Assembly: GCA_963804645.1 (NCBI GenBank)
Contig: CAWDRG010000001.1
Coordinates: 64,001 to 128,000, forward strand
Direction: 5' to 3'
Length of the DNA stretch: 64,000 bases
From: an uncultured Bacillota bacterium
GTDB lineage: Bacteria > Sysuimicrobiota > Sysuimicrobiia > Sysuimicrobiales > Segetimicrobiaceae
This document shows positions 38,303 to 48,839 of the stretch, piece after piece (the first letter of the stretch is position 1; the number at the start of each line of letters is the position of its first letter). The notes under the pieces were generated by a model, which was not told where the DNA came from, ran no database searches, and worked only from the letters and a program-made list of their open reading frames with translations. Made by a program: the position numbers and the translations under genes.

Positions 38303-39394
38303 ATGAGCATAGACGCCGGTCCACGAACCGGCCACCCGTATTTCATGCACGATGCGATCCTCGGACAGCCCGAGGCGTTCGCGCGCGTCATCGACCGCGT
38401 CGAGGCCTCCGCGGATGCGATCACGGAGCGGCTGGCCGGGGCCGCGCGGGTGTTCCTCGTCGGAATCGGAACGTCCTATCACGCCGCGCAGATCGGCGAG
38501 TATCTCATGCGGGCCTATGCGGGAGGCGTTCCGGTTCAAGCGATCCATGCGTTCGAGTTCGCGCTGTACGGGCCGCCGATCGGCCCACGGGACGCGGTCG
38601 TCGGCGTGAGCCACCGGGGCACCAAACGCTACACCGGCGCCGCGCTCGCGCGCGCCCGCGAGGCGGGATGCGCCACCGCGCTGATCACCGGCGAGGCCGG
38701 CACCGCGGCCGTCCCCGAGGTGGACCAGCTCCTGCGCACCGTACCGCAGGAGCGGTCGTCCGCGCACACGATCAGCTACACGGGCTCCGTGGCGGCGCTT
38801 GCGGCGCTCGCGGACCGGGTCGGCGGACGCCGCCAGGGCCGCCGACCGCTCGGGCCCGCATACCTTCGAACTGACATCCCCACCGCCTTGCGCGCGGCGC
38901 TCGCCACGGAGCCCGGCGTCGAGGCACTCGCGCGGACGCTCGCCGGGCGCCGACGCGTCTGGTTGGTCGGCGGAGGGCCGGGCGCGGTCGTCGCCAGCGA
39001 GATCGCGCTCAAGATCAAGGAGACCTCGTACCTGCAGGCCGAGGGGCTGAGCGTCGAAGCGATGTTGCACGGACCGTTCCAGTGTGTCGATCCCGAGGAC
39101 CTCTTCGTCTTGATCGCCCAAGAGGGCCCGTCCGCGGGGCGCGTCGCCGAACTCGCGGCCCAGGTGCGGACGATCGGCGCGGGGCTGCTCGTCGTCGGCG
39201 ACGACACCGCGCGGCGGATCGACGATGCCGCGTGCCTCGTCCCTCACGTGCCCGAACCGTTCGCCGGGCTCACGTGTGCGGTGCCACTGCAGCTGTTTGC
39301 GTATCATCTGGCGCTCGTGCGCGGCACGAACCCCGACGGCTTTCGGCTCGACGACCCGCGCTTCGCGCGCGCGTACAAACAGGCCACCCTGTAG
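38303..39394 (+). CDS. Double-SIS domain sugar-phosphate isomerase/deglycase (GlmS C-terminal-like)
   Basis: GIGTSYHA, VSHRG, EIALKIKE, HGP, PLQLFAY..A..RG.NPD; no glutaminase domain. Confidence 0.87.
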   Translation: MSIDAGPRTGHPYFMHDAILGQPEAFARVIDRVEASADAITERLAGAARVFLVGIGTSYHAAQIGEYLMRAYAGGVPVQAIHAFEFALYGPPIGPRDAVVGVSHRGTKRYTGAALARAREAGCATALITGEAGTAAVPEVDQLLRTVPQERSSAHTISYTGSVAALAALADRVGGRRQGRRPLGPAYLRTDIPTALRAALATEPGVEALARTLAGRRRVWLVGGGPGAVVASEIALKIKETSYLQAEGLSVEAMLHGPFQCVDPEDLFVLIAQEGPSAGRVAELAAQVRTIGAGLLVVGDDTARRIDDAACLVPHVPEPFAGLTCAVPLQLFAYHLALVRGTNPDGFRLDDPRFARAYKQATL

Positions 39395-39440
39395 CGCCCG
39401 CGTGCCGCACCCCCGCGCCGACCCGCCGCGTGGACAGCCC

Positions 39441-40682
39441 GTGCGCCGGACGCACGGACAGGGCGCCGGCCCAACGCGTACGCGCGGTTCCCGCGCGGCC
39501 CGGGCACCCGTCGGCGCGCCGTCGGATCGAGCGGACGACCGGCACACGCGCGAGCTGCGCATTCTGAACGCGATCGCCGAAGCCCTCAACAGCGCTCCCG
39601 ACGTCCAGCGCGCGCTCGAGCGCACACTCGCGATGGTGGCGGAGCTTCTCGGACTGCGCACGGGGTGGGTCTGGCTCCGAGACCCCGACTCCGGACGCTT
39701 CTACAACGCGGCGGCGCAGGATCTGCCGCCGTACCTGCAGGCGCCCGTGCGGATGACGGGACGCTCGTGCTGGTGCCTCGACGAGTTCCAGGCGGGCGAA
39801 CTCGCCCCGCAAAACATCGATGTGATGGAGTGCAGCCGTCTGCGGCCAGCGGTGAAGCGCCAGGCCATCGAACTGACCCAAGGCCTCGCGTACCACGCGA
39901 GCATTCCGCTGTATTTCCGCGACACCCCGCTCGGCGTCATGAACGTGACGGGACCGTCGTGGCGGCAGCTGACCGCGGACGAGCTGCGGCTGCTCTCGAC
40001 GATCGCCTACCAGGTGGGCATCGCGATCGAGCGCGCGCGCCTCGCCGAGGAAACGGCCCGCCTGGCGCGGGCCGAGGAGCGCGCGCGCCTCGCCCGGGAA
40101 ATTCACGACACGCTTGCGCAGGCGCTCACCGCGATTGCGCTCCACCTGGAAGCGGCTGTCGGCCAGCTCGAACGCGATCCGGCGCGCAGCCGCCAGCGGA
40201 TCCTGCGGGCGCTGGACGTCACCCGCGCCAGCCTGGAGGAGGCCCGGGGCTCCGTGCTGAATCTGCGCGCCTCCCCGCTTGCCGGACGGCCGCTGCCGGA
40301 AGCACTCGCCGCGCTGGCCCGGACGGTGACCGCGGAAAGCGGGATCCGCGTGCGGGTCGACGCGTCCGGCGTCCCGCGGCTCCCCGCGCGAACCGAGTCC
40401 GAGCTGTTCCGCATCGCGCAGGAGGCCCTCACCAATGTGCGCCGGCACGCGGAGGCGACCGAGGCGACGATCACGCTCGGGGCGAGCGCGTGCCGCGTCC
40501 GCCTGATCGTCCGCGACAACGGCCGCGGCTTCGCACCCGGCCGCATCGGGGAAGGCCATCTTGGGCTCGTGGGGATGCGCGAGCGGGCCCAGCTCCTGCG
40601 AGGCACGCTGCGGGTACGCAGCACCCCGGGCCGCGGGACAGTCATCACCGCGTCGTGCCCGCACGCCGACGCGTCCCGATGA
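39441..40682 (+). CDS. Soluble GAF-domain sensor histidine kinase (HisKA_3 type; start uncertain)
   Basis: GAF region, EERARLAREIHDTLAQ, QEALTNVRRH, DNGRGF, GLVGMRERA. Confidence 0.9.
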   Translation: MRRTHGQGAGPTRTRGSRAARAPVGAPSDRADDRHTRELRILNAIAEALNSAPDVQRALERTLAMVAELLGLRTGWVWLRDPDSGRFYNAAAQDLPPYLQAPVRMTGRSCWCLDEFQAGELAPQNIDVMECSRLRPAVKRQAIELTQGLAYHASIPLYFRDTPLGVMNVTGPSWRQLTADELRLLSTIAYQVGIAIERARLAEETARLARAEERARLAREIHDTLAQALTAIALHLEAAVGQLERDPARSRQRILRALDVTRASLEEARGSVLNLRASPLAGRPLPEALAALARTVTAESGIRVRVDASGVPRLPARTESELFRIAQEALTNVRRHAEATEATITLGASACRVRLIVRDNGRGFAPGRIGEGHLGLVGMRERAQLLRGTLRVRSTPGRGTVITASCPHADASR

Positions 40683-41299
40683 TCCGCATTCTCGTCGTCG
40701 ACGATCATCCCGTGGTCCGCGAAGGCCTCGTCGCGATCCTCGAGGACGAGCGGGACTTTCAGGTCATGGCGGCCGTGGGGTCCGCCGAAGCGGCGGTCGA
40801 AGCGGCCGGGCGCGGCCGGCCCGACATCATCCTCCTCGACCTCGAACTCCCGCACGTCGACGGCGTCGACGCGATCCCCCGCCTCGCCGCGGTCTCCCCA
40901 GGCGCGCGCGTCGTCGTGCTCACCGCGTACGACACGGAAGAGCGCGTCCTCGGCGCGCTCCGCGCCGGGGCCTGCGGCTACCTCTTGAAGGGCGCCACCG
41001 CTGAGGAGATCGGACGGGCGATTCGGGCGGTCCACGCCGGGGGGTCATACCTGAGCGCGCGGATCGCCGCGACGGTGCTGACGCAGGTGCGCGATCCGGC
41101 GCGCACCACGGTGCTCACCCGGCGAGAACGGATGGTGCTGCGCCTCGTCGCCGACGGGTTGTCGAGCAAAGCGATCGCCCGGCGGCTCGAGATCACGGAG
41201 CGGACGGTGAAGTTCCACGTCGGCTCGATCCTAAACAAGCTCGGCGCTGGCACCCGCGCGCAGGCCGTCGCGGAGGCCGCGCGGCGCGGACTGCTCTAG
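40679..41299 (+). CDS. NarL/LuxR-family response regulator
   Basis: ILVVDDHPVVREGL, LLDL, GYLLK, LTRRE..VL...TVKFHV; ATGA overlap with the kinase. Confidence 0.95.
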   Translation: MIRILVVDDHPVVREGLVAILEDERDFQVMAAVGSAEAAVEAAGRGRPDIILLDLELPHVDGVDAIPRLAAVSPGARVVVLTAYDTEERVLGALRAGACGYLLKGATAEEIGRAIRAVHAGGSYLSARIAATVLTQVRDPARTTVLTRRERMVLRLVADGLSSKAIARRLEITERTVKFHVGSILNKLGAGTRAQAVAEAARRGLL

Positions 41300-41564
41300 C
41301 ACCGACTCGGGCCCCCGCTACCTCCCGCGATCCCGCGTCAGCGCCTCCGGGAACCTGTGGTACAACATACGTTCGTGTAGGCCGATCCGTCTGGGCCTCA
41401 CCCATACGGGGCACACCACAAGCGGGCGTGGTTGCGTTCGGCACTGACGCACCCGCCGGAGTCTGGCGATCAAGATGCAGCCACACACTGCGGTCCGGCG
41501 TCGCGTCGGGCCGACGCTGGACCTGACCCGCCGATCATGACGCGGTCCCCCCGGTGATCGCCCC

Positions 41565-42518
41565 ATGATCCACGCGTTTCTCCTCGCCGCCATAGAGTTC
41601 GCGCGGAACTTTGCGGAAGTCGCACTCGTCGGATTTTTTCTGGCCGGCGTGCTCAACGCCGTGGTCAACAAGCCGGCGCTCGCCCGTCACCTCGGCGGCA
41701 GTGTCGTGCGTGCCAACGCCGTCGCCTCGACCTGGGGGTTTCTGACGCCGCTCTGCTGCTGCTCGGGTGTGCCCACCGCGGTTACCCTCTACCGGTCCGG
41801 CAGCCGTCGGGGACCGGCCTGCGCGTTCCTGATCGCGGTCCCCTGGTTCAATTGGTACGGTCTTACGGCGCTGGTCATCTTCCTGGGCTGGCGCGCGGGG
41901 CTCGCGGTGTCGCTGTCAGCCGTGGGCGTCGCGTTCATCACGGGCGCGGTCATCGATACGCTCGATGCGCGCTGGCCGGCGCCCGTTCGCACGCTCGCGC
42001 CCCACGGACACCACCCGCTGCACGGCGCGGCCCTGGCACATCGCTGCGGCGGTGAGCCGGACCCCGCCCTCGATCCGGGCGGCCCGCTGCTCGACCTCTC
42101 GAACCCGTGGGAGAAAGCGGTCGCAGGTGTCCGATTCGCACTGCAATTGGCCGCAGAGATCGCGCCCTGGATCGCGGCCGGCATCCTGCTCGGCGCGGCC
42201 GCGGAAACGTTCATTCCGTCCGGCTTTCTCTCCGGGCCGCTCGGGAAGACCAGCGTCGCGGGGCTGCTCGTCGCGGTCGCGGTGGCCGGCGTGTCGTACA
42301 CGGAAAGCCTGGCCTCCCTGCCTTGGGTGCGCGCCCTGCTCAATAAGGGCGCCGGCATCGGCAGCGGAATGGTGCTGCTCGTGGGAGGCGTGGCCACCAA
42401 TCTGTCAACGCTCGGGCCGATCGCCCGCGTGATGGGCGCGCGCACGGCCATCGTCTACGCGACGAGCGTCGTCCTTCTTGCCACCGCGCTCGGGTACTGG
42501 CTGAACCAATTCCTGTAA
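41565..42518 (+). CDS. Predicted permease (DUF318/ArsP_1-like) with Cys and His motifs
   Basis: TPLCCCSGVP, AFLIAVP, His-rich loop PHGHHPLHG, multiple TM helices. Confidence 0.8.
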   Translation: MIHAFLLAAIEFARNFAEVALVGFFLAGVLNAVVNKPALARHLGGSVVRANAVASTWGFLTPLCCCSGVPTAVTLYRSGSRRGPACAFLIAVPWFNWYGLTALVIFLGWRAGLAVSLSAVGVAFITGAVIDTLDARWPAPVRTLAPHGHHPLHGAALAHRCGGEPDPALDPGGPLLDLSNPWEKAVAGVRFALQLAAEIAPWIAAGILLGAAAETFIPSGFLSGPLGKTSVAGLLVAVAVAGVSYTESLASLPWVRALLNKGAGIGSGMVLLVGGVATNLSTLGPIARVMGARTAIVYATSVVLLATALGYWLNQFL

Positions 42519-42652: not shown

Positions 42653-42715
42653 TTGACAATCCCCTCCGGAGCATGCTAGCGTAACGAACTAGTAGTTGTA
42701 AGTAATTTACAATTA
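42653..42715 (+). promoter_or_regulatory. Sigma70 promoter plus Fur/Zur-like palindromic operator
   Basis: TTGACA (42653) - 18 bp - TAGCGT with upstream TG; 23-bp imperfect palindrome TAGTTGTAAGTAATTTACAATTA at 42693-42715. Confidence 0.7.
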
Positions 42716-42781
42716 GAGATCGCTGTCGTCTAAGGCGCTGTGTGCAATCATCCTGGCGATGAGTGGACGGGGGGGCGCTTG

Positions 42782-44731
42782 GTGAGGGCATGCGTTCGAT
42801 GGATCGTGCTCGGGCTACTTCTGATTGCGTGGAACGTCCCGGCGATTGCGCAGCCATTTAGGGACTCGTCCGCCGTGCCGGCATGGGCCTACGCCGCCGT
42901 GGAGGAGCTCGCGGCGGCGGGCTTGGTGCAGGGCTATCCCGATGGGACGTTTCGCGGCGACCGCGCGATGACCAGGGACGAAATGGCCGTGATCGTGGCC
43001 CGCGTCCTCGCAAAAGTCGAGACCATCGAAAGTCAATTGCCCGCCCCGCAGCGCCCGCAGGCGGGGCCCCGTGCGGGGACGCCGCCCCCTCCCCCGGGGC
43101 CGCAGGTGACGCAGGCGGATATCGACCTGCTCCTCCGGCTAGTCAACGAACTGCAGGATGAACTCGCGGACCTTGCCATACGCGTGCCCGCGGCCGAACA
43201 GGAACTACGGGCCATCGCACCGAGCATCGACCACGTACGGGTAACGGGCACGATGCGATTCCGTGAAAGCGTGGCCCGGAGCACCCAGGGCGCGGTGGGC
43301 GCGGGCAGCCCCACGGGCATAAACGGCAATCCCTTGACCACCGACCAGAGCTCCGAGACCGCCCCACTCGTGAACGGCACGCAGTACGAGTTCAAGCTCA
43401 ACTTCGACGGCGCCGTGGTGGCCCAAACCGGGCCGATCACCGTCGCCACCGGATTACCATTTATCGCCAACAATCTGCACTTCATCGCGGCAGTCATGAC
43501 GCAAGGGGACAACTTGCAGGTCTTCAACAGCGGCAACAGCGGCACCGCGACCAACCCGCCCGCGTTCGGCAGCCAACCCGCCAACGCCGCGTTCGGGAAC
43601 GGCGCGTTCGGCAGCCTCGACAGCGCGTTCCTCGACTGGACGCGCCAGTGGGGCACCTCGGTCGCGCCGAAGACGCTCGAGACGTGGCTCGGACGGTTCG
43701 GCGCCAACCCGCAGCCCAACTGCATGGCCGACTGCTACCCGGTCCAGTTCGGCCCCTTCGGGCTGTTGATGAACGACACCGGGGCCACCTGGAGCGACTC
43801 CACCGCCGACAGCGGCGTAAACGTCATGGACGGCCTGCGGGTCGCCCTGCATCTGCCCGACGCGCTGGACCTGCAAGCCCAGGCCCTGATCACGCGCGTG
43901 CAAGGAGCCACCGGGAGTACCACCGACGAGCCCGGCGTGCCCCTCCCGAGCGACGCGTATATCTTTGGGGAAGACGCCTACGGCTTCGACGTCAACATCC
44001 AGGCCAACTACTGGACCCGGATCGGCGTCTACTACGTGGGGAACACGATCACGGCCGCGAACAGCACTCCCGGGCCCGGGGGCTTCGGCAACGCCGGGCA
44101 GTGGCACGTGTACGGACCGGGCGGCGGCTCGATGAACCCCGGCAACCTGAACACGCTCACCTCCGGGAGCTACCACTGCGCCTCGGTGGCGGGCACGGGG
44201 ATCACGTGCCCGGCGGCCGGGAACGGCTGGGGCGCGTACCTCGACTCGGATATCCTCCGCTACGTCCACCTGGACGGGGAGTATGCGGAGTGGAACGACG
44301 CGGTGTTCGGCACGAGCGACAGCGGCTATCAGCTCAACGTGATCTGGGACCTCGGAGACATGACGAAAATCAATCCTCCAGACAACTACAACTGGAGCCT
44401 GCAGACAGGCTACCTGAACTACGGGCAGAACTTCTACCCGCCGTACGGCTCGGCCGAGGCCGACGCGCCGATGAACGACACGATTTACCCGGGGAACGCC
44501 CAAGGGATCACGGCGACCATGAGTATCCAACCCACGCAGAAGCTGACGTTGTACGCGACCTACTTCGGCGGCGAGAACCAGTCCAACGGCCAGCCGATCG
44601 CCGAGGGGGAGATCGGCTTCCAGTACGCCTTCTCCACCCAAGCGCAGTTTTGGGTCCTCGCGCGGTCGCTCAACATCAATGGGGTCAACCAGCTGCAGTT
44701 GTACCGCGCGCAGATCGACTACTACTTCTGA
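42782..44731 (+). CDS. SLH-domain outer-membrane beta-barrel protein (OmpM/cyanobacterial porin-like)
   Basis: Signal peptide; SLH WAYAAVEELAAAGLVQGYPDGTFRGDRAMTRDEMA; coiled coil LLRLVNELQDEL; amphipathic beta-strands ending QIDYYF. Confidence 0.8.
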   Translation: MRACVRWIVLGLLLIAWNVPAIAQPFRDSSAVPAWAYAAVEELAAAGLVQGYPDGTFRGDRAMTRDEMAVIVARVLAKVETIESQLPAPQRPQAGPRAGTPPPPPGPQVTQADIDLLLRLVNELQDELADLAIRVPAAEQELRAIAPSIDHVRVTGTMRFRESVARSTQGAVGAGSPTGINGNPLTTDQSSETAPLVNGTQYEFKLNFDGAVVAQTGPITVATGLPFIANNLHFIAAVMTQGDNLQVFNSGNSGTATNPPAFGSQPANAAFGNGAFGSLDSAFLDWTRQWGTSVAPKTLETWLGRFGANPQPNCMADCYPVQFGPFGLLMNDTGATWSDSTADSGVNVMDGLRVALHLPDALDLQAQALITRVQGATGSTTDEPGVPLPSDAYIFGEDAYGFDVNIQANYWTRIGVYYVGNTITAANSTPGPGGFGNAGQWHVYGPGGGSMNPGNLNTLTSGSYHCASVAGTGITCPAAGNGWGAYLDSDILRYVHLDGEYAEWNDAVFGTSDSGYQLNVIWDLGDMTKINPPDNYNWSLQTGYLNYGQNFYPPYGSAEADAPMNDTIYPGNAQGITATMSIQPTQKLTLYATYFGGENQSNGQPIAEGEIGFQYAFSTQAQFWVLARSLNINGVNQLQLYRAQIDYYF

Positions 44732-44794
44732 ACGACCGGGCGGCCAGCCCCGCACCGCGCCGTACGCGGCGCGAGAGAGGGAGCGTGATCGACG

Positions 44795-45709
44795 ATGAGA
44801 GGACGAACACAGACGACCGCGATCATCGTGGCGGCGTTCGTAGCCGTGTGGCTGGCGTCCGCGGGGGTCCGCGGCGGCGCGGCCGCGGCCGCGCCGCCCG
44901 CCGCCAAGCCGGTCATCGTCGCGGGGGAAAACTTCTACGGCGACGTGACGTCCCAGATCGCCGGAAACCACGTGACGGTCATCAGCATCATCAGCGACCC
45001 GAACGCCGACCCGCACGAGTACGAGAGTAGCGCGAACGACGCGGGGGAAATCGCGCGCGCCAGCCTGGTGATCATGAACGGCCTGGGGTATGATGACTTC
45101 GTGCCGCGGATGATGAACGCCTCGCCGAATCCGACCCGGAAGGTCATCAACGTCCAGTTGCTGATGGGGCACAAGACCGGCGACAACGTGCACCTCTGGT
45201 ACGATCCGGCGACGATGCCCAAGGTGGCGCAGACGATCACCGACGATCTGGTCCAGATCGATCCGGCCAACGCGCAGTACTACCACGACTGGCTCGGTCA
45301 GTTCCTGACGTCGCTCGGCCCGCTGCATCAGAAGATCGCGGAGATGCACGCCAAGTACGGGGGGGTGCCGGTCGCGTTCACGGAGCCCGTCTTTGGCTAC
45401 ATGGCCGAGGCAATCGGGTTCAACGTGCTCACGCCGGAACCATTTGTCAAAGCGATCGAAGACGGCACCGAGCCGCCGGCCTCGGCGATCGCGCAGAACG
45501 ATGATCAGTACCGGACCCACCAGATCAAGATCCTGCTCTACAACGTGCAGACCGTCACCCCGATCACGACGAACGTGCAGAAGCGCGCCAAGGAGCTCGG
45601 CATCCCGGTGGTCGGGGTCTCGGAAACCGAGCCGATCGGCCAGAGCTTCCAGCAGTGGCAGCTCACCCAGCTGAACGAGATCGACGCGGCGCTCAGCGGA
45701 GTGAAGTGA
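44795..45709 (+). CDS. znuA: Zinc/manganese ABC transporter substrate-binding protein
   Basis: DPHEYE, NGLGYD, NVHLWYDP, TEPVFGY. Confidence 0.88.
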   Translation: MRGRTQTTAIIVAAFVAVWLASAGVRGGAAAAAPPAAKPVIVAGENFYGDVTSQIAGNHVTVISIISDPNADPHEYESSANDAGEIARASLVIMNGLGYDDFVPRMMNASPNPTRKVINVQLLMGHKTGDNVHLWYDPATMPKVAQTITDDLVQIDPANAQYYHDWLGQFLTSLGPLHQKIAEMHAKYGGVPVAFTEPVFGYMAEAIGFNVLTPEPFVKAIEDGTEPPASAIAQNDDQYRTHQIKILLYNVQTVTPITTNVQKRAKELGIPVVGVSETEPIGQSFQQWQLTQLNEIDAALSGVK

Positions 45710-46524
45710 GCGTGGGGCAGACCGCCGCGGTCGGGTTGGAGCACGCGACCGTCCATGCCGGAGGGCGGCCGATCTGGACCGACCTGTCCTTCACGATGAA
45801 CGCCGGCGAGTTCGTCGCGGTGATGGGGCCGAACGGCGCGGGCAAGACGACGCTGCTGCGGGTCCTCCTTGGGCTGCAGCGCCTCGAGTCCGGCACCGCG
45901 CTGGTCTCGGGCCAGCCCCCGCGCCCGGGCAACCCCGCGATCGGCTACGTCCCGCAGCACCGGGGGTTCGATCCGGACCTGGCCGTGCGCGCCCGGGACC
46001 TCGTTGCGTGGGGGCTCGACGGCCACCGCTGGGGTGTCGCACTGCGGCGCGGCGCGACAACGCGGCGGGTCGATGAGATGCTGGACCTCGTCGGAGCCCG
46101 CACGTATGCCGATGCGCCCGTCGGCCAGTTGTCGGGAGGAGAGCAGCAGCGGGTCCGGGTCGCCCAGGCGCTGATCGGCGACCCCGATCTGCTGCTGTGC
46201 GACGAGCCGCTCCACAGCCTCGATCTCCACTATCAGCAGCGGATCGTCGAGCTGATCGCCGACTGGAACCGCCGGCGGGGCGCCACCGTACTGTTCGTCA
46301 CGCACGACATCAACCCGGTCCTCACCGAGGTCAACCGCGTGCTGCTCCTCGCGGGCGCCCGATGGACGGCGGGCACGCCGGCCGAAGTGCTGACCTCGGA
46401 GACGCTGACGCGGCTGTACGGCACGCCGGTCGACGTGCTGCAGCACCGCGGGCGGGTCGTGATTCTGGGGGCCGACTTGGGCAGCCACGCGGCCCTGCCC
46501 GACTACGCGCCGGTGCCCGAATGA
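45706..46524 (+). CDS. znuC: Metal ABC transporter ATP-binding protein
   Basis: GPNGAGKT, GYVPQ, LSGGEQQR, LLCDEP, VTHD. Confidence 0.88.
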   Translation: MSVGQTAAVGLEHATVHAGGRPIWTDLSFTMNAGEFVAVMGPNGAGKTTLLRVLLGLQRLESGTALVSGQPPRPGNPAIGYVPQHRGFDPDLAVRARDLVAWGLDGHRWGVALRRGATTRRVDEMLDLVGARTYADAPVGQLSGGEQQRVRVAQALIGDPDLLLCDEPLHSLDLHYQQRIVELIADWNRRRGATVLFVTHDINPVLTEVNRVLLLAGARWTAGTPAEVLTSETLTRLYGTPVDVLQHRGRVVILGADLGSHAALPDYAPVPE

Positions 46525-47402
46525 ACACGGACCTGTGGCAGTACCCGTTTGTGCACCAGGCCCTCATGGCGGGCGTGATCACCGCGATCATGACGGGCGT
46601 GGTCGGTCCGTTCGTGGTGATGCGCAACATGGGGTTCGCGGTCCACGGGCTCGCGGAAGTCGGGTTCACCGGGGCGGCCGGCGCGGTGCTGGCCGACGCC
46701 TCGCCGGAGGTCGGCGTCCTCGTCGCCGCCCTGGTGACGGCGCTCGCGATCGGCGTCCTCGGCGTGCGCCTGCGTGAGCGCGACATCGCGATCGGAGCGG
46801 TCCTCGCATTCGGGCTCGGGCTCGGCGTCCTGTTCCTGACCCTCTATACCCGGTACGCGACCGAGGCGTTCAGCATCCTGTTCGGGACGATCCTGGCCGT
46901 GAGCCTCGGCGACGTGGTCCGGTCCGCGGTCGTGGCGGTCGTGGCGCTCGCGGCCCTCGCCGTGATCTATCGCCCGCTCAGGTTCGCGAGCGTCGATCCT
47001 GAGGTCGCGGCGGCCCGCGGCGTACCGATCGGCCTCCTGTCGGCCGTGTTTTTGGTGATCCTGGCGCTCGCGGTCACGGAGGCTGTCGAGGTGGTGGGCG
47101 TCCTCCTGATCGTGACGCTCCTGATCACCCCGGCCGGGGCGGCGCAGCGCCTCACCGCCAACCCCGCGGTGGCGACGCTGCTGAGCGTCGTGATCTGCCT
47201 GGTGGTCACGCTCGGCGGCATCACGGCGGCGATTTACACGTCGTGGCCGGTCAGCTTTTTCGTCGCCACCTTCAGCTTTGCGATCTACCTGGGCGCGCGC
47301 CTCGTCGGGCCTCGGCTTCGAGCGCCCAGGGCACTCCCGGCGTCCGCCCCCACCCTGTCGGCGCGCGTGCCAGACCACGACACTGGCGCCCATCGACACT
47401 GA
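46521..47402 (+). CDS. znuB: Metal ABC transporter permease
   Basis: GPFVVMRNMGFAVHG, LFGTIL, SVDPEVA.ARGVP, VGVLL. Confidence 0.88.
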   Translation: MNTDLWQYPFVHQALMAGVITAIMTGVVGPFVVMRNMGFAVHGLAEVGFTGAAGAVLADASPEVGVLVAALVTALAIGVLGVRLRERDIAIGAVLAFGLGLGVLFLTLYTRYATEAFSILFGTILAVSLGDVVRSAVVAVVALAALAVIYRPLRFASVDPEVAAARGVPIGLLSAVFLVILALAVTEAVEVVGVLLIVTLLITPAGAAQRLTANPAVATLLSVVICLVVTLGGITAAIYTSWPVSFFVATFSFAIYLGARLVGPRLRAPRALPASAPTLSARVPDHDTGAHRH

Positions 47403-47410
47403 CGGACCCC

Positions 47411-47866
47411 GTGCCCACGCGCGCCCGCCACGCGGACCCACGGGACGCCAAGCACCTGGCGACGCTGCACCGGAGTACACTGCGCGTCACGCCGCAGCGC
47501 ATCGCCATCCTGCGCGCGCTCGCGGCCGGCCCGCACGTTGCGACCTGCCACGAAATCTGGGAGCGCGCGCGCGCCGGCACGGCGGGGCTTGGACAGGTAA
47601 CGGTGTACCGCATTCTGGAGCGCTTTGAGGCCGCCGGGATCGTCGAGCGCCTCGACGTGAACGGAACCTCCCGGTTCGGCCTTGCCACCCGCCACCACGA
47701 CCACACGATCTGCGAGCAGTGCGGTGCGGTGAACGCCACGGATGCGTGTCTTCTCGAGGCGCTCGCCGGCGTCTCCCGCGGCCCGCAGGGGTTCCTCGTC
47801 AAGCGCCATCGGGTCGACCTCATCGGCCTGTGCGGCGTGTGCCAGCGCGCCGAACGCACCCCGTAG
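47411..47866 (+). CDS. Fur-family regulator (probable Zur; start uncertain)
   Basis: RVTPQRIAIL, TVYRIL, HHDHTICEQCG, GLCGVC; directly follows znuB. Confidence 0.88.
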   Translation: MPTRARHADPRDAKHLATLHRSTLRVTPQRIAILRALAAGPHVATCHEIWERARAGTAGLGQVTVYRILERFEAAGIVERLDVNGTSRFGLATRHHDHTICEQCGAVNATDACLLEALAGVSRGPQGFLVKRHRVDLIGLCGVCQRAERTP

Positions 47867-48026
47867 CGCCGCGAGGATCCGCAGACGGGCAGCGTGAAGT
47901 CCACGGGGGCCCGCGCAACGATTTCACGCTCGTCCGAACGGCAGGCTCGGGTGAACCTGGACCGGTGTCGATCGAGACCGCGGTCCCGGCGCGCTGTGCG
48001 GGCGGCGCACCGAACGGGAGGTGGGC

Positions 48027-48839
48027 ATGGAGCCGACTGAGCGGGGCGGGCCGGACGCGGCGCAACAGGAACGTGTGGTGCCGCCGGCCGTGACACACGA
48101 TTTCCTCAATCCCGCCCGTGAGTGGCGGCGGATCTTCGCGGAAGCCTGGGGCACGTTTCTGCTGGTGCTGGTCGCCGCCGGCGCCCACGTCGTTGCGGCC
48201 GTGAGCGGCGGCCGGGTGACCCTCGGCATGATCGTGGTGGCACCCGGACTCATGGTAATGGCGATCATCTACTTCATGGGTGCCGTGAGCGGAGCGCATT
48301 TGAATCCGGCTGTCACGCTGGCGTTTGCGGTGCGGCGCAACTTCCCTTGGAAGAGAGTCCCGGGCTACATCGTCGGACAAGTGATCGGAGGCATCGGTGC
48401 CGCGCTGTTCCTGCGGAGCATGTTCGGGACGGCCGGCGCGCTCGGTGCGACGGTGCCGGGCGCGGGGTTCACCAGCGGGACGGCCCTGGCGGTGGAGGTG
48501 GTGCTGACGGCGGGGCTGGTCAACACGGTCCTGGGCACGGCCTCCGGCGCGCGGAACATCGGCACAAACGGCGCCATCGCCGTGGGCGGGTATATTGCGC
48601 TGGCAGGACTGTGGGCGGAGCCGGTGAGCGGCGCCTCCATGAACCCCGTGCGTTCGCTCGCGCCGGATCTCGCGCGCGGCGACCTCCAGACGACCTGGAT
48701 CTACGTCGTCGGGCCAGGACTGGGCGCCTTGATCGGCGTGGCCTTCGAGTGGATCCTCAAAGGCAGGCCCACCGCAGCGGGGCGCATCGCCGCGGAGGGA
48801 ACGCTTGATGTTGACGATCAGGCCGCGCCGGATGCGTGA
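48027..48839 (+). CDS. Aquaporin/MIP family channel
   Basis: SGAHLNPAVT and GASMNPVRS (NPA/NPV). Confidence 0.92.
   Translation: MEPTERGGPDAAQQERVVPPAVTHDFLNPAREWRRIFAEAWGTFLLVLVAAGAHVVAAVSGGRVTLGMIVVAPGLMVMAIIYFMGAVSGAHLNPAVTLAFAVRRNFPWKRVPGYIVGQVIGGIGAALFLRSMFGTAGALGATVPGAGFTSGTALAVEVVLTAGLVNTVLGTASGARNIGTNGAIAVGGYIALAGLWAEPVSGASMNPVRSLAPDLARGDLQTTWIYVVGPGLGALIGVAFEWILKGRPTAAGRIAAEGTLDVDDQAAPDA

Follow-up and report, generated by a model that had tools for sequence, protein, structure and literature searches.

In diderm Terrabacteria, OmpM-type proteins serve as the principal porins and, at the same time, as the principal membrane tethers. To our knowledge, the passage of free metal ions over the outer membrane is poorly known beyond the TonB-dependent receptors of Proteobacteria, and is almost unknown in diderm Terrabacteria. 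Here we describe a locus from an uncultured two-membrane soil bacterium in which the gene for an OmpM-type porin stands first in an apparent operon with the genes for an ATP-binding cassette (ABC) metal importer and a Fur-family regulator. The DNA analyzed, referred to as the window, was a stretch of 64,000 nucleotides (G000:C1:64001-128000, where Gxxx denotes a genome, Cx a contig and Lxxx a locus), and positions given without a prefix are those of the window. The G000 assembly comprised 5.3 Mb in 22 contigs with 69% G+C and was 96.8% complete. The presence of genes for Omp85/BamA (G000:C17:511043-511900) and LpxC (G000:C17:506836-507630) indicated that the cell is diderm, as had been claimed in an initial annotation of the window made from the sequence alone.

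Among described proteins, OmpM1 of Veillonella parvula (8bys/8bym; PMC10628300) resembles the window porin in having a signal peptide and a single SLH domain, a coiled-coil stalk of three chains (predicted to trimerize in the window porin), a barrel at the C-terminus and several paralogs. The OmpM1 barrel has 16 strands (PMC10628300), whereas about 18 were predicted here, a number that comes from prediction and is closer to the OccK/OprD channels; strand number need not define the wider family. OmpM paralogs figure in that report as general porins and tethers and are not presented as parts of a metal operon (PMC10628300). The cyanobacterial SLH porins of the Som/Slr1908 type (NF033921) also share the SLH domain, coiled coil and barrel, although NF033921 matched only the N-terminal part of the window porin. 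In a study of Anabaena, some SLH porins reacted to depletion of Mn, Fe or Zn or altered metal tolerance, Zur regulation was found for none of the porin genes examined, and no operon with an ABC importer is described (PMC9705863).

MspD of Mycobacterium smegmatis is a porin paralog whose expression rises in zinc starvation and on deletion of Zur; it is accessory to ZnuABC and forms a TonB-independent outer-membrane route (PMC13098993), as the porin proposed here may do. It differs in being an MspA-type octamer of the mycomembrane, in being encoded outside the znu operon and in having no SLH tether (PMC13098993). MnoP of Bradyrhizobium is an outer-membrane Mn channel needed under metal scarcity (cited in PMC9334652); it differs from the window porin as a proteobacterial barrel with no SLH domain that is not in an importer operon. 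Metal-starvation-regulated porins are, as these two show, already known; what is unusual in the present locus is the OmpM-type architecture of the porin, its position as first cistron and its repeated loss. A literature search of limited coverage returned no description of an SLH-tethered porin in a Fur-family-controlled ABC importer operon. The remainder of the locus resembles the cluster A-I importers (YfeABCD, PsaABC, AztABCD and the actinobacterial znuACB-zur operons) in its PF01297 protein, ABC-3 permease, ATPase, A-C-B-regulator gene order and 7-1-7 promoter palindrome. It differs from them in a His-His-Glu-Glu ligand set, in scores below every equivalog cut-off and in having the porin as first cistron.

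A porin gene at the head of an importer operon

The five genes of the locus, all on the plus strand, were found to be closely packed. The porin paralog of 649 amino acids (42782-44731; assigned by Pfam SLH, AlphaFold2 and Foldseek) lies in an open reading frame (ORF) of 42740-44731 whose likely start is the GTG at 42782, six bases past a run of G. After a 63-nt spacer (44732-44794) with a GGGAG ribosome-binding site follows the gene for a periplasmic cluster A-I metal-binding protein of family PF01297 (44795-45709), whose signal peptide lacks a lipobox Cys and whose ligand positions hold His, His, Glu and Glu. The ABC ATPase gene (45706-46524, from family searches) starts at GTG 45706, in a GTGA overlap, or at GTG 45712; the ABC-3 family permease gene (46521-47402, likewise from family searches) overlaps the ATPase stop in ATGA; and the gene for a Fur-family regulator of 151 amino acids (PF01475), with an HHDH motif and two CxxC pairs, lies at 47411-47866. 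The intergenic gaps are thus, in order, 63 nt, -4 or +2 nt, -4 nt and 8 nt. This layout agreed with the initial annotation, which had the binding protein 63 nt after the porin and overlapping or near-abutting junctions through the Fur-family gene. A terminator between 44731 and 44795, named there as a refutation, was not identified when the spacer was scanned, and the spacer folded with no greater stability than shuffled sequences (z 0.24). Together, these data supported the five genes being one tight unit behind a Fur-family-type operator.

The promoter ahead of the porin gene consists of a -35 hexamer, TTGACA (42653-42658, plus strand), which is a perfect match, and, after an 18-nt spacer, an extended -10 region made up of TG (42674-42675), C and TAGCGT (42677-42682, plus strand). 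The -10 element is of the extended TG type and, as it fits the consensus at only 3/6 positions, a consensus promoter scan called nothing here. The same -35 hexamer, equally far from the operator, was identified in L054, L055, L057, L059, L061 and L034-L036, and the layout TTGACA-N17/18-TGnTAnnnT recurs ahead of related porin or binding-protein genes, with -10 versions in relatives that read TGnTAACGT, TGaTACATA and TGaTAGATA. The initial annotation had placed a near-consensus promoter and a 23-bp AT-rich palindrome here, and both were found where it had put them.

The palindrome, a presumed Fur-family operator with related 7-1-7 boxes at the corresponding place in relatives, spans 42693-42715. 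Its arms (42693-42701 and 42707-42715) are 89% complementary, and its 7-1-7 core at 42697-42711 is TGTAAGTAATTTACA. A degenerate pattern made from five related sites, with a chance expectation of 0.17 per window, occurred in the window only at this box. In scans of the whole 5.3-Mb genome with a position weight matrix (PWM) and with the pattern, the box was the sole site above 20 bits; the runner-up, at 19 bits, lies in G+C-rich and probably coding sequence. Against a background of 7 matches in 779 kb, boxes of at least 15 bits were identified upstream of the regulator or binding-protein gene at 8/9 loci with a window-type regulator (the exception, L041, had a best box of 14.6 bits) and at 4/4 solo binding-protein loci of the same genus. 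In the window the box lies 14 nt downstream of the -10 element; at the solo loci and in L059 and L061 this distance is 2-3 nt. Judged from these distances, the position of the box would suit a block of initiation or early elongation. According to a review (PMC6103462), the typical Zur box is a palindrome of the 7-1-7 or 9-1-9 type or of 23 bp and acts by blocking RNA polymerase at the promoter.

Analyses of the porin itself bore out the SLH domain, coiled coil and beta-barrel ending in F that had initially been read from its ORF. The signal peptide (42782-42850) ends in AIA, before QPF, and is followed on the plus strand by an SLH domain (~42854-42988; PF00395, E 1.2e-14, ORF residues 39-83), a Pro-rich linker of low confidence in the model, a coiled-coil stalk (~43112-43231, helices at residues 111-150) and a beta-barrel of about 18 strands in the AlphaFold2 model (~43238-44728), with ...QIDYYF as the C-terminus of the protein. 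The single SLH domain was the only Pfam match, the barrel matching no Pfam family. The NCBIfam model NF033921 (por_somb, "iron uptake porin") scored 44.6 bits against a cut-off of 100 and covered residues 48-187 only. Among 1.84 billion representatives, 27 proteins belonged to the porin family at E 1e-30, and the weaker matches listed beyond those 27 were mostly confined to the SLH and stalk part. Based on these searches, the barrel family is apparently small and lineage-restricted.

The AlphaFold2 model, built with 58 aligned homologs, had a mean predicted local distance difference test score (pLDDT) of 78.4 and a predicted template modeling score (pTM) of 0.74. It contained an SLH helix bundle and 18 long strands, counted from the model, at residues 153-648 with a pLDDT mostly above 85. 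The best PDB match by Foldseek was OmpM1 of V. parvula (8bys_A, E 1.0e-11, TM 0.62 on target). In the VIA comparison, OccK3/OpdO (2y0k) came first among 18-strand OccK/OprD channels (Z 25.6, root-mean-square deviation (rmsd) 3.0, 314 aligned), and OmpM1 gave Z 18.3 with an rmsd of 4.0 over 301 aligned. Prediction of the stalk as a trimer (residues 24-152, three copies) returned an interface score (ipSAE) of 0.61, versus 0.00 for the best of three controls, with contact agreement of at least 72% between runs, a partner pLDDT of at least 68 and contacts recurring at intervals of 3-4 residues over positions 109-145. This mark was reached by 20/30 solved pairs and 1/23 single chains. As the structure of the OmpM1 stalk was already solved, we read this pass as likeness and not as binding, and the stalk is predicted to trimerize. 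The SLH domain, stalk, barrel and OmpM1 match together indicated an OmpM architecture with a larger predicted barrel; the structural check suggested with the initial annotation, for a trimeric barrel with SLH domain, came out in favor of the SLH domain and the barrel, a trimer being predicted for the stalk.

Clade-specific linkage and repeated loss of the porin

G000 contains a second porin copy, of the housekeeping type, on the minus strand of C17 (C17:493779-495820; L002), 11-15 kb from lpxC and bamA. In the assembly this copy is split over three frames by two single-base insertions relative to the intact ortholog in G070. Contigs of two public runs, 95-99% alike, covered one of the two sites and were missing the insertion at L002 place 2790, so that this insertion may reflect either strain variation or a fault of the assembly.

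In the phylum, 74/94 species genomes (tallies that include G025) matched the porin query at E 1e-10. Full-length barrel matches were confined to one family, f1, in which they occurred in 22/22 of the other genomes. The best matches within the same genus were 46-48% identical over the full length and 50-53% in the barrel segment, and they grouped in the tree with the C17 copy and not with the window porin. At the 19 full or nearly full loci from species representatives (L005-L023, flanks of up to 1.5 kb), no porin was flanked by a binding-protein gene.

A scan of metagenome contigs identified 12 porin loci, eight of them 59-99% identical to the window porin. In the six contigs where the downstream DNA was visible (L054, L057, L058, L059, L060 and L061), the binding-protein gene stood directly 3' of the porin gene in every case; the other two close contigs, L055 and L056, end inside the porin. 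As L058/L059 and L060/L061 are near-identical pairs, the six contigs amount to about four distinct sequences. None of the four metagenome loci with porins at 45-47% identity had a binding-protein gene within 10 kb on either side. Similarly, none of 74 loci with SLH porins from other lineages (Negativicutes, Vulcanimicrobiota, Rifle-type bacteria and others) had a cluster A-I binding protein or permease gene in the flank of up to 6 kb that the contig allowed.

In a quick IQ-TREE phylogeny of 31 rows, the linked porins and L056 formed one long-branched clade with a Shimodaira-Hasegawa-like approximate likelihood ratio test (SH-aLRT) value of 100. This clade falls in an unresolved group with the G063 copy and the housekeeping clade of the genus, which holds the C17 copy. 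The tree leaves out L055 (truncated, and 99% identical to the window porin), L064 (which duplicates L063), the incomplete L020 and L024, L025-L033 (matches to the SLH part only) and duplicates from genome contigs. At thirty positions the linked clade had a fixed residue that was rare elsewhere; five of these positions lie in the SLH domain, and one Asp was gained at stalk position 130. Together, these data lend good support to the linkage with the binding-protein gene being conserved and specific to one porin paralog clade, and the operon porin is probably a diverged duplicate of the housekeeping tether porin. The initial annotation had asked for a neighborhood survey and a phylogeny against housekeeping paralogs, and these supported the linkage for this one clade.

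Comparison with L061 showed that sister species have lost the porin from the same place. The solo binding-protein loci of the genus (L034-L036 and L048) have the same promoter and boxes of 21.8-27.3 bits, and in G065, G066, G067 and G069 the promoter and box are followed by porin-end remnants of 17-95 nt and then by the binding-protein gene. In G067, the promoter, box and leader lead into the first 17 nt of the porin gene, with its ATG changed to ACG, and from there directly into the spacer that normally separates the porin and binding-protein genes. G069 retains ~44 nt of the porin 5' end and ~42 nt of its 3' end, G066 approximately the last 95 nt and G065 approximately the last 60 nt; the 3' remnant still shows ...QI(D/V)Y..F-stop. 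At least three deletion end points were distinct. The retention of promoter and operator by the sisters, together with the varied scars, indicated that the porin was in the operon of the genus ancestor and was deleted at least three times. These clean, repeated deletions are natural knockouts for comparison.

A further porin remnant was seen in genus g6, where a solo binding-protein gene, a porin pseudogene and a serine-recombinase gene adjoin in G077:C34 (L037 8878-11355). The remnant encodes, in a frame that is broken twice, a signal peptide, an SLH domain, a coiled coil and the first strands, and it seems that a mobile element cut this porin. Its N-terminal part assigned it to neither porin clade. 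The binding-protein gene stands under a different palindrome, and the pair represents a second, differently ordered and decayed pairing of the two genes.

Metal, regulator and alternative explanations

On balance, we think it probable that the locus is a metal-starvation operon in which a porin and an importer are made together, with zinc as the most likely metal. The promoter, operator, porin, binding protein, ATPase, permease and Fur-family repressor would form one transcription unit. A metal-loaded repressor would bind the palindrome just 3' of the -10 element and block transcription; when metal becomes short, it would release the operator, and the derepressed cell would make the high-affinity cluster A-I ABC importer and an extra outer-membrane channel together. 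This channel, a wall-tethered and probably trimeric OmpM-type porin of ~18 strands, could let more of the metal, alone or in a small complex, enter the periplasm passively, to be caught there by the soluble binding protein. An OmpM-type paralog under a Fur-family operator offers a compact natural case for asking whether porin paralogs specialize in metal entry.

A stronger version of this proposal, which we consider unlikely, is that the porin has evolved from OmpM into a gate dedicated to metal. It would be a wall-tethered trimer of 18-strand barrels, produced solely in metal starvation, that passes an ion, most likely zinc, to the co-encoded binding protein. The operon would then encode a TonB-independent route over both membranes, and repeated deletion of the porin would reflect a cost, such as metal poisoning or the entry of phages or toxins. 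The term "TonB-independent" in the initial annotation was an inference, and the genome has one TonB-dependent receptor elsewhere, at C9:709351-710562.

Family searches identified the PF01297 binding protein, the ABC-3 permease and the ABC ATPase with E 3.8e-48, 3.1e-41 and 1.5e-30, respectively. For all three ABC parts the best metal-specific models were those of AztC, AztB and AztA, each below its cut-off: the permease scored 128.1 bits against AztB (cut-off 280) and the ATPase 140.3 against AztA (220), and the binding protein was below every NCBIfam cut-off, with 78.8 bits against AztC (350) and 36.6 against ZnuA (268). The ligand columns were His, His, Glu and Glu in 24/24 orthologs of the binding protein. 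The third-ligand Glu, a hallmark of PsaA/MntC/YfeA-type sites, aligns with a His of Synechocystis ZnuA (2ov1), 8svc and 6ru4, and no His-rich loop was identified in the binding protein. Judged from its ligands, the site would resemble that of YfeA more than that of ZnuA. The site of YfeA is His-His-Glu-Asp, and YfeA-type sites also bind zinc (PMC6719664).

A second cluster A-I system, with ATPase, permease and binding-protein genes, was identified on the minus strand at G000:C19:196388-199131, beside which no Fur-family gene or box was seen. The ligands of its binding protein are His, His, His and Asp, a zinc-type set. Based on the His-His-Glu-Glu set in 24/24 orthologs, the lack of a His-rich loop, the scores below NCBIfam cut-offs and the presence of the C19 system, we could not retain the names "znuA" and "zinc-specific" from the initial annotation.

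The regulator (PF01475, E 4.5e-20), whose two CxxC pairs fit a structural Cys4 site, scored nearer to PerR and Fur than to Zur. Its best PDB relatives were PerR (2fe3, E 7.9e-17) and Fur (9.8e-15), the Zur entries being weaker (2o03 at 7e-11; range 7e-11 to 1.8e-8), and NCBIfam scored it at 64.3 bits for Fur versus 39.3 for Zur, both below cut-off. For neither the window regulator nor its paralog on C5 did NCBIfam separate Zur from Fur or PerR, and the neighbors of the C5 gene (Mrp/ApbC-like, DUF-like and aldolase-like, by eye) gave no clue to a metal. Another regulator of the window subtype, 63% identical and alone, was seen on the minus strand at G000:C4:73236-73637, between genes that appeared by eye to encode a KdpD-like kinase and response regulators; no box for it was found elsewhere in the genome.

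In the window regulator the segment G...RHHDH-TIC has a Gly where the regulators of genus g6 carry a Cys, and it has no Cys plus HHHH pattern. The g6 regulator beside the orthologous operon carries FCAPGHHHHMIC, then -x2-C (Cys-x4-HHHH-x2-CxxC), the Zur signature of Terrabacteria (Actinobacteria and Bacillota). Given the PerR and Fur relatives and the missing Cys plus HHHH pattern of the g6 regulator, the initial name "zur" was not supported for the window gene. Window-type regulators were 54-60% identical, and the divergent g6 regulator was 34-37% identical (five loci: L038, L040, L044, L045 and L049). In place of a 7-1-7 box, the g6 loci have as operator a 26-bp palindrome (GAGAYT..TCGATAC..TCTC), which was also seen at G077:C34:209904-209929 and G076:C92:3295-3320. 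In the five g6 genomes, palindromes of this type occurred only at binding-protein or regulator loci, which did not name the metal. In g6, the same transporter seems to have exchanged both its regulator and its operator. The order most often found in the family was regulator-A-C-B (8 loci); the A-C-B-regulator order of the window, which matches that of Streptomyces znuACB-zur and speaks for zinc, recurs in G075. Together, these comparisons caution that a PF01297 protein with a Fur-family gene need not mean "znuA-zur", as the ligand set and the regulator type misfit here.

The same operon logic could therefore serve Mn(II) or Fe(II), with a Mnt/Sit/Yfe-like importer, a Mur/Fur-like sensor and a porin that is a counterpart of MnoP, which is reportedly regulated by the Fur-family protein Mur. 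We regard this alternative as possible but not favored. The invariant His-His-Glu-Glu ligands, the missing His-rich loop, the separate His-His-His-Asp system on C19 and a regulator with HHDH that is nearest to PerR and Fur are all in its favor, as are boxes such as TGATAATGATTATCG at L042, which is nearly identical to the classical Fur box; the window box is equally near the classical Fur box and actinobacterial Zur boxes. Three DtxR-family regulators were identified in G000, two of them directly ahead of NRAMP genes, which indicated that manganese has its own sensors and seems to be served by these pairs. Many boxes would be expected for a global iron Fur; the one strong box in the genome implies a single-operon regulon, in line with zinc. 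The ABC parts scored highest against the Azt zinc models, g6 pairs the same operon with a Zur-like regulator, and YfeA-type sites bind zinc too. The whole-genome PWM and pattern scans found no second strong box in G000, so that a metal could not be named from the regulon. From context, zinc is slightly favored as the metal, at about an even chance, and manganese or iron has a substantial probability that is short of even.

The porin could also be a spare general-diffusion or tether paralog with no role in metal uptake, its co-transcription with the importer being a historical accident, which we consider improbable. The clade-specific substitutions included no gain of His or Cys, D335 and E338 are replaced by Ala and Ser in the loop that bears the short helix 335-340, and the His, Asp and Glu contents did not differ between the porin clades; the sequence thus showed no sign of selectivity, for which co-regulation is the sole argument, and the metal-selective pore of the initial annotation was not borne out. 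Deletion in four sister species indicated that the porin is accessory and not obligatory, a copy has decayed in G077, and 19/19 loci of species representatives had no intact porin beside the binding-protein gene, from which the importer works without it. The absence of a cluster A-I gene within 6 kb at the 74 SLH-porin loci of other lineages agrees with a spare paralog. A point against the preferred explanation itself is L056, a member of the linked clade with a different upstream context; no box was present in the stretch covered by its contig, where the best site reached 13.5 bits. Against such an accident, the linked porins are a distinct, long-branched clade whose linkage is kept down to 59% identity, the promoter and operator precede the porin and not the binding-protein gene, and g6 contains a second binding-protein/porin pair under another operator. 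Another possibility, that the operon porin has become the constitutive main OmpM because the housekeeping copy is broken, the palindrome serving another purpose, starts from the three frames of the C17 paralog and its two single-base insertions relative to G070. We give it very little weight, as one of those insertions is missing from the 95-99% alike public contigs and the operator is conserved where the housekeeping copy of relatives is intact. For the initial annotation as a whole, the sequence elements, the operon and the clade-specific linkage of porin and importer stood, and the assignments to zinc, to Zur and to a selective pore were not supported.

Neighboring genes and other metal transporters

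Seven NRAMP-family matches were seen in G000, at C10:98750-100602, C21:18596-20868 and five further places, and two of the seven lie directly after DtxR-family genes. On the 3' side of the operon, a gene for an aquaporin-like channel of the MIP family (48021-48839) lies on the same strand, 154 nt from the Fur-family gene, and no terminator was predicted between the two. Upstream, at 39225-42518, are genes for a histidine kinase, a LuxR-type response regulator and an ArsP_1 permease, the last of which scored 132.8 bits against the SO_0444 Cu/Zn efflux model, under its cut-off of 300. The order of permease and porin was not kept in L059 or L061 and was preserved in L054, L055 and L057.

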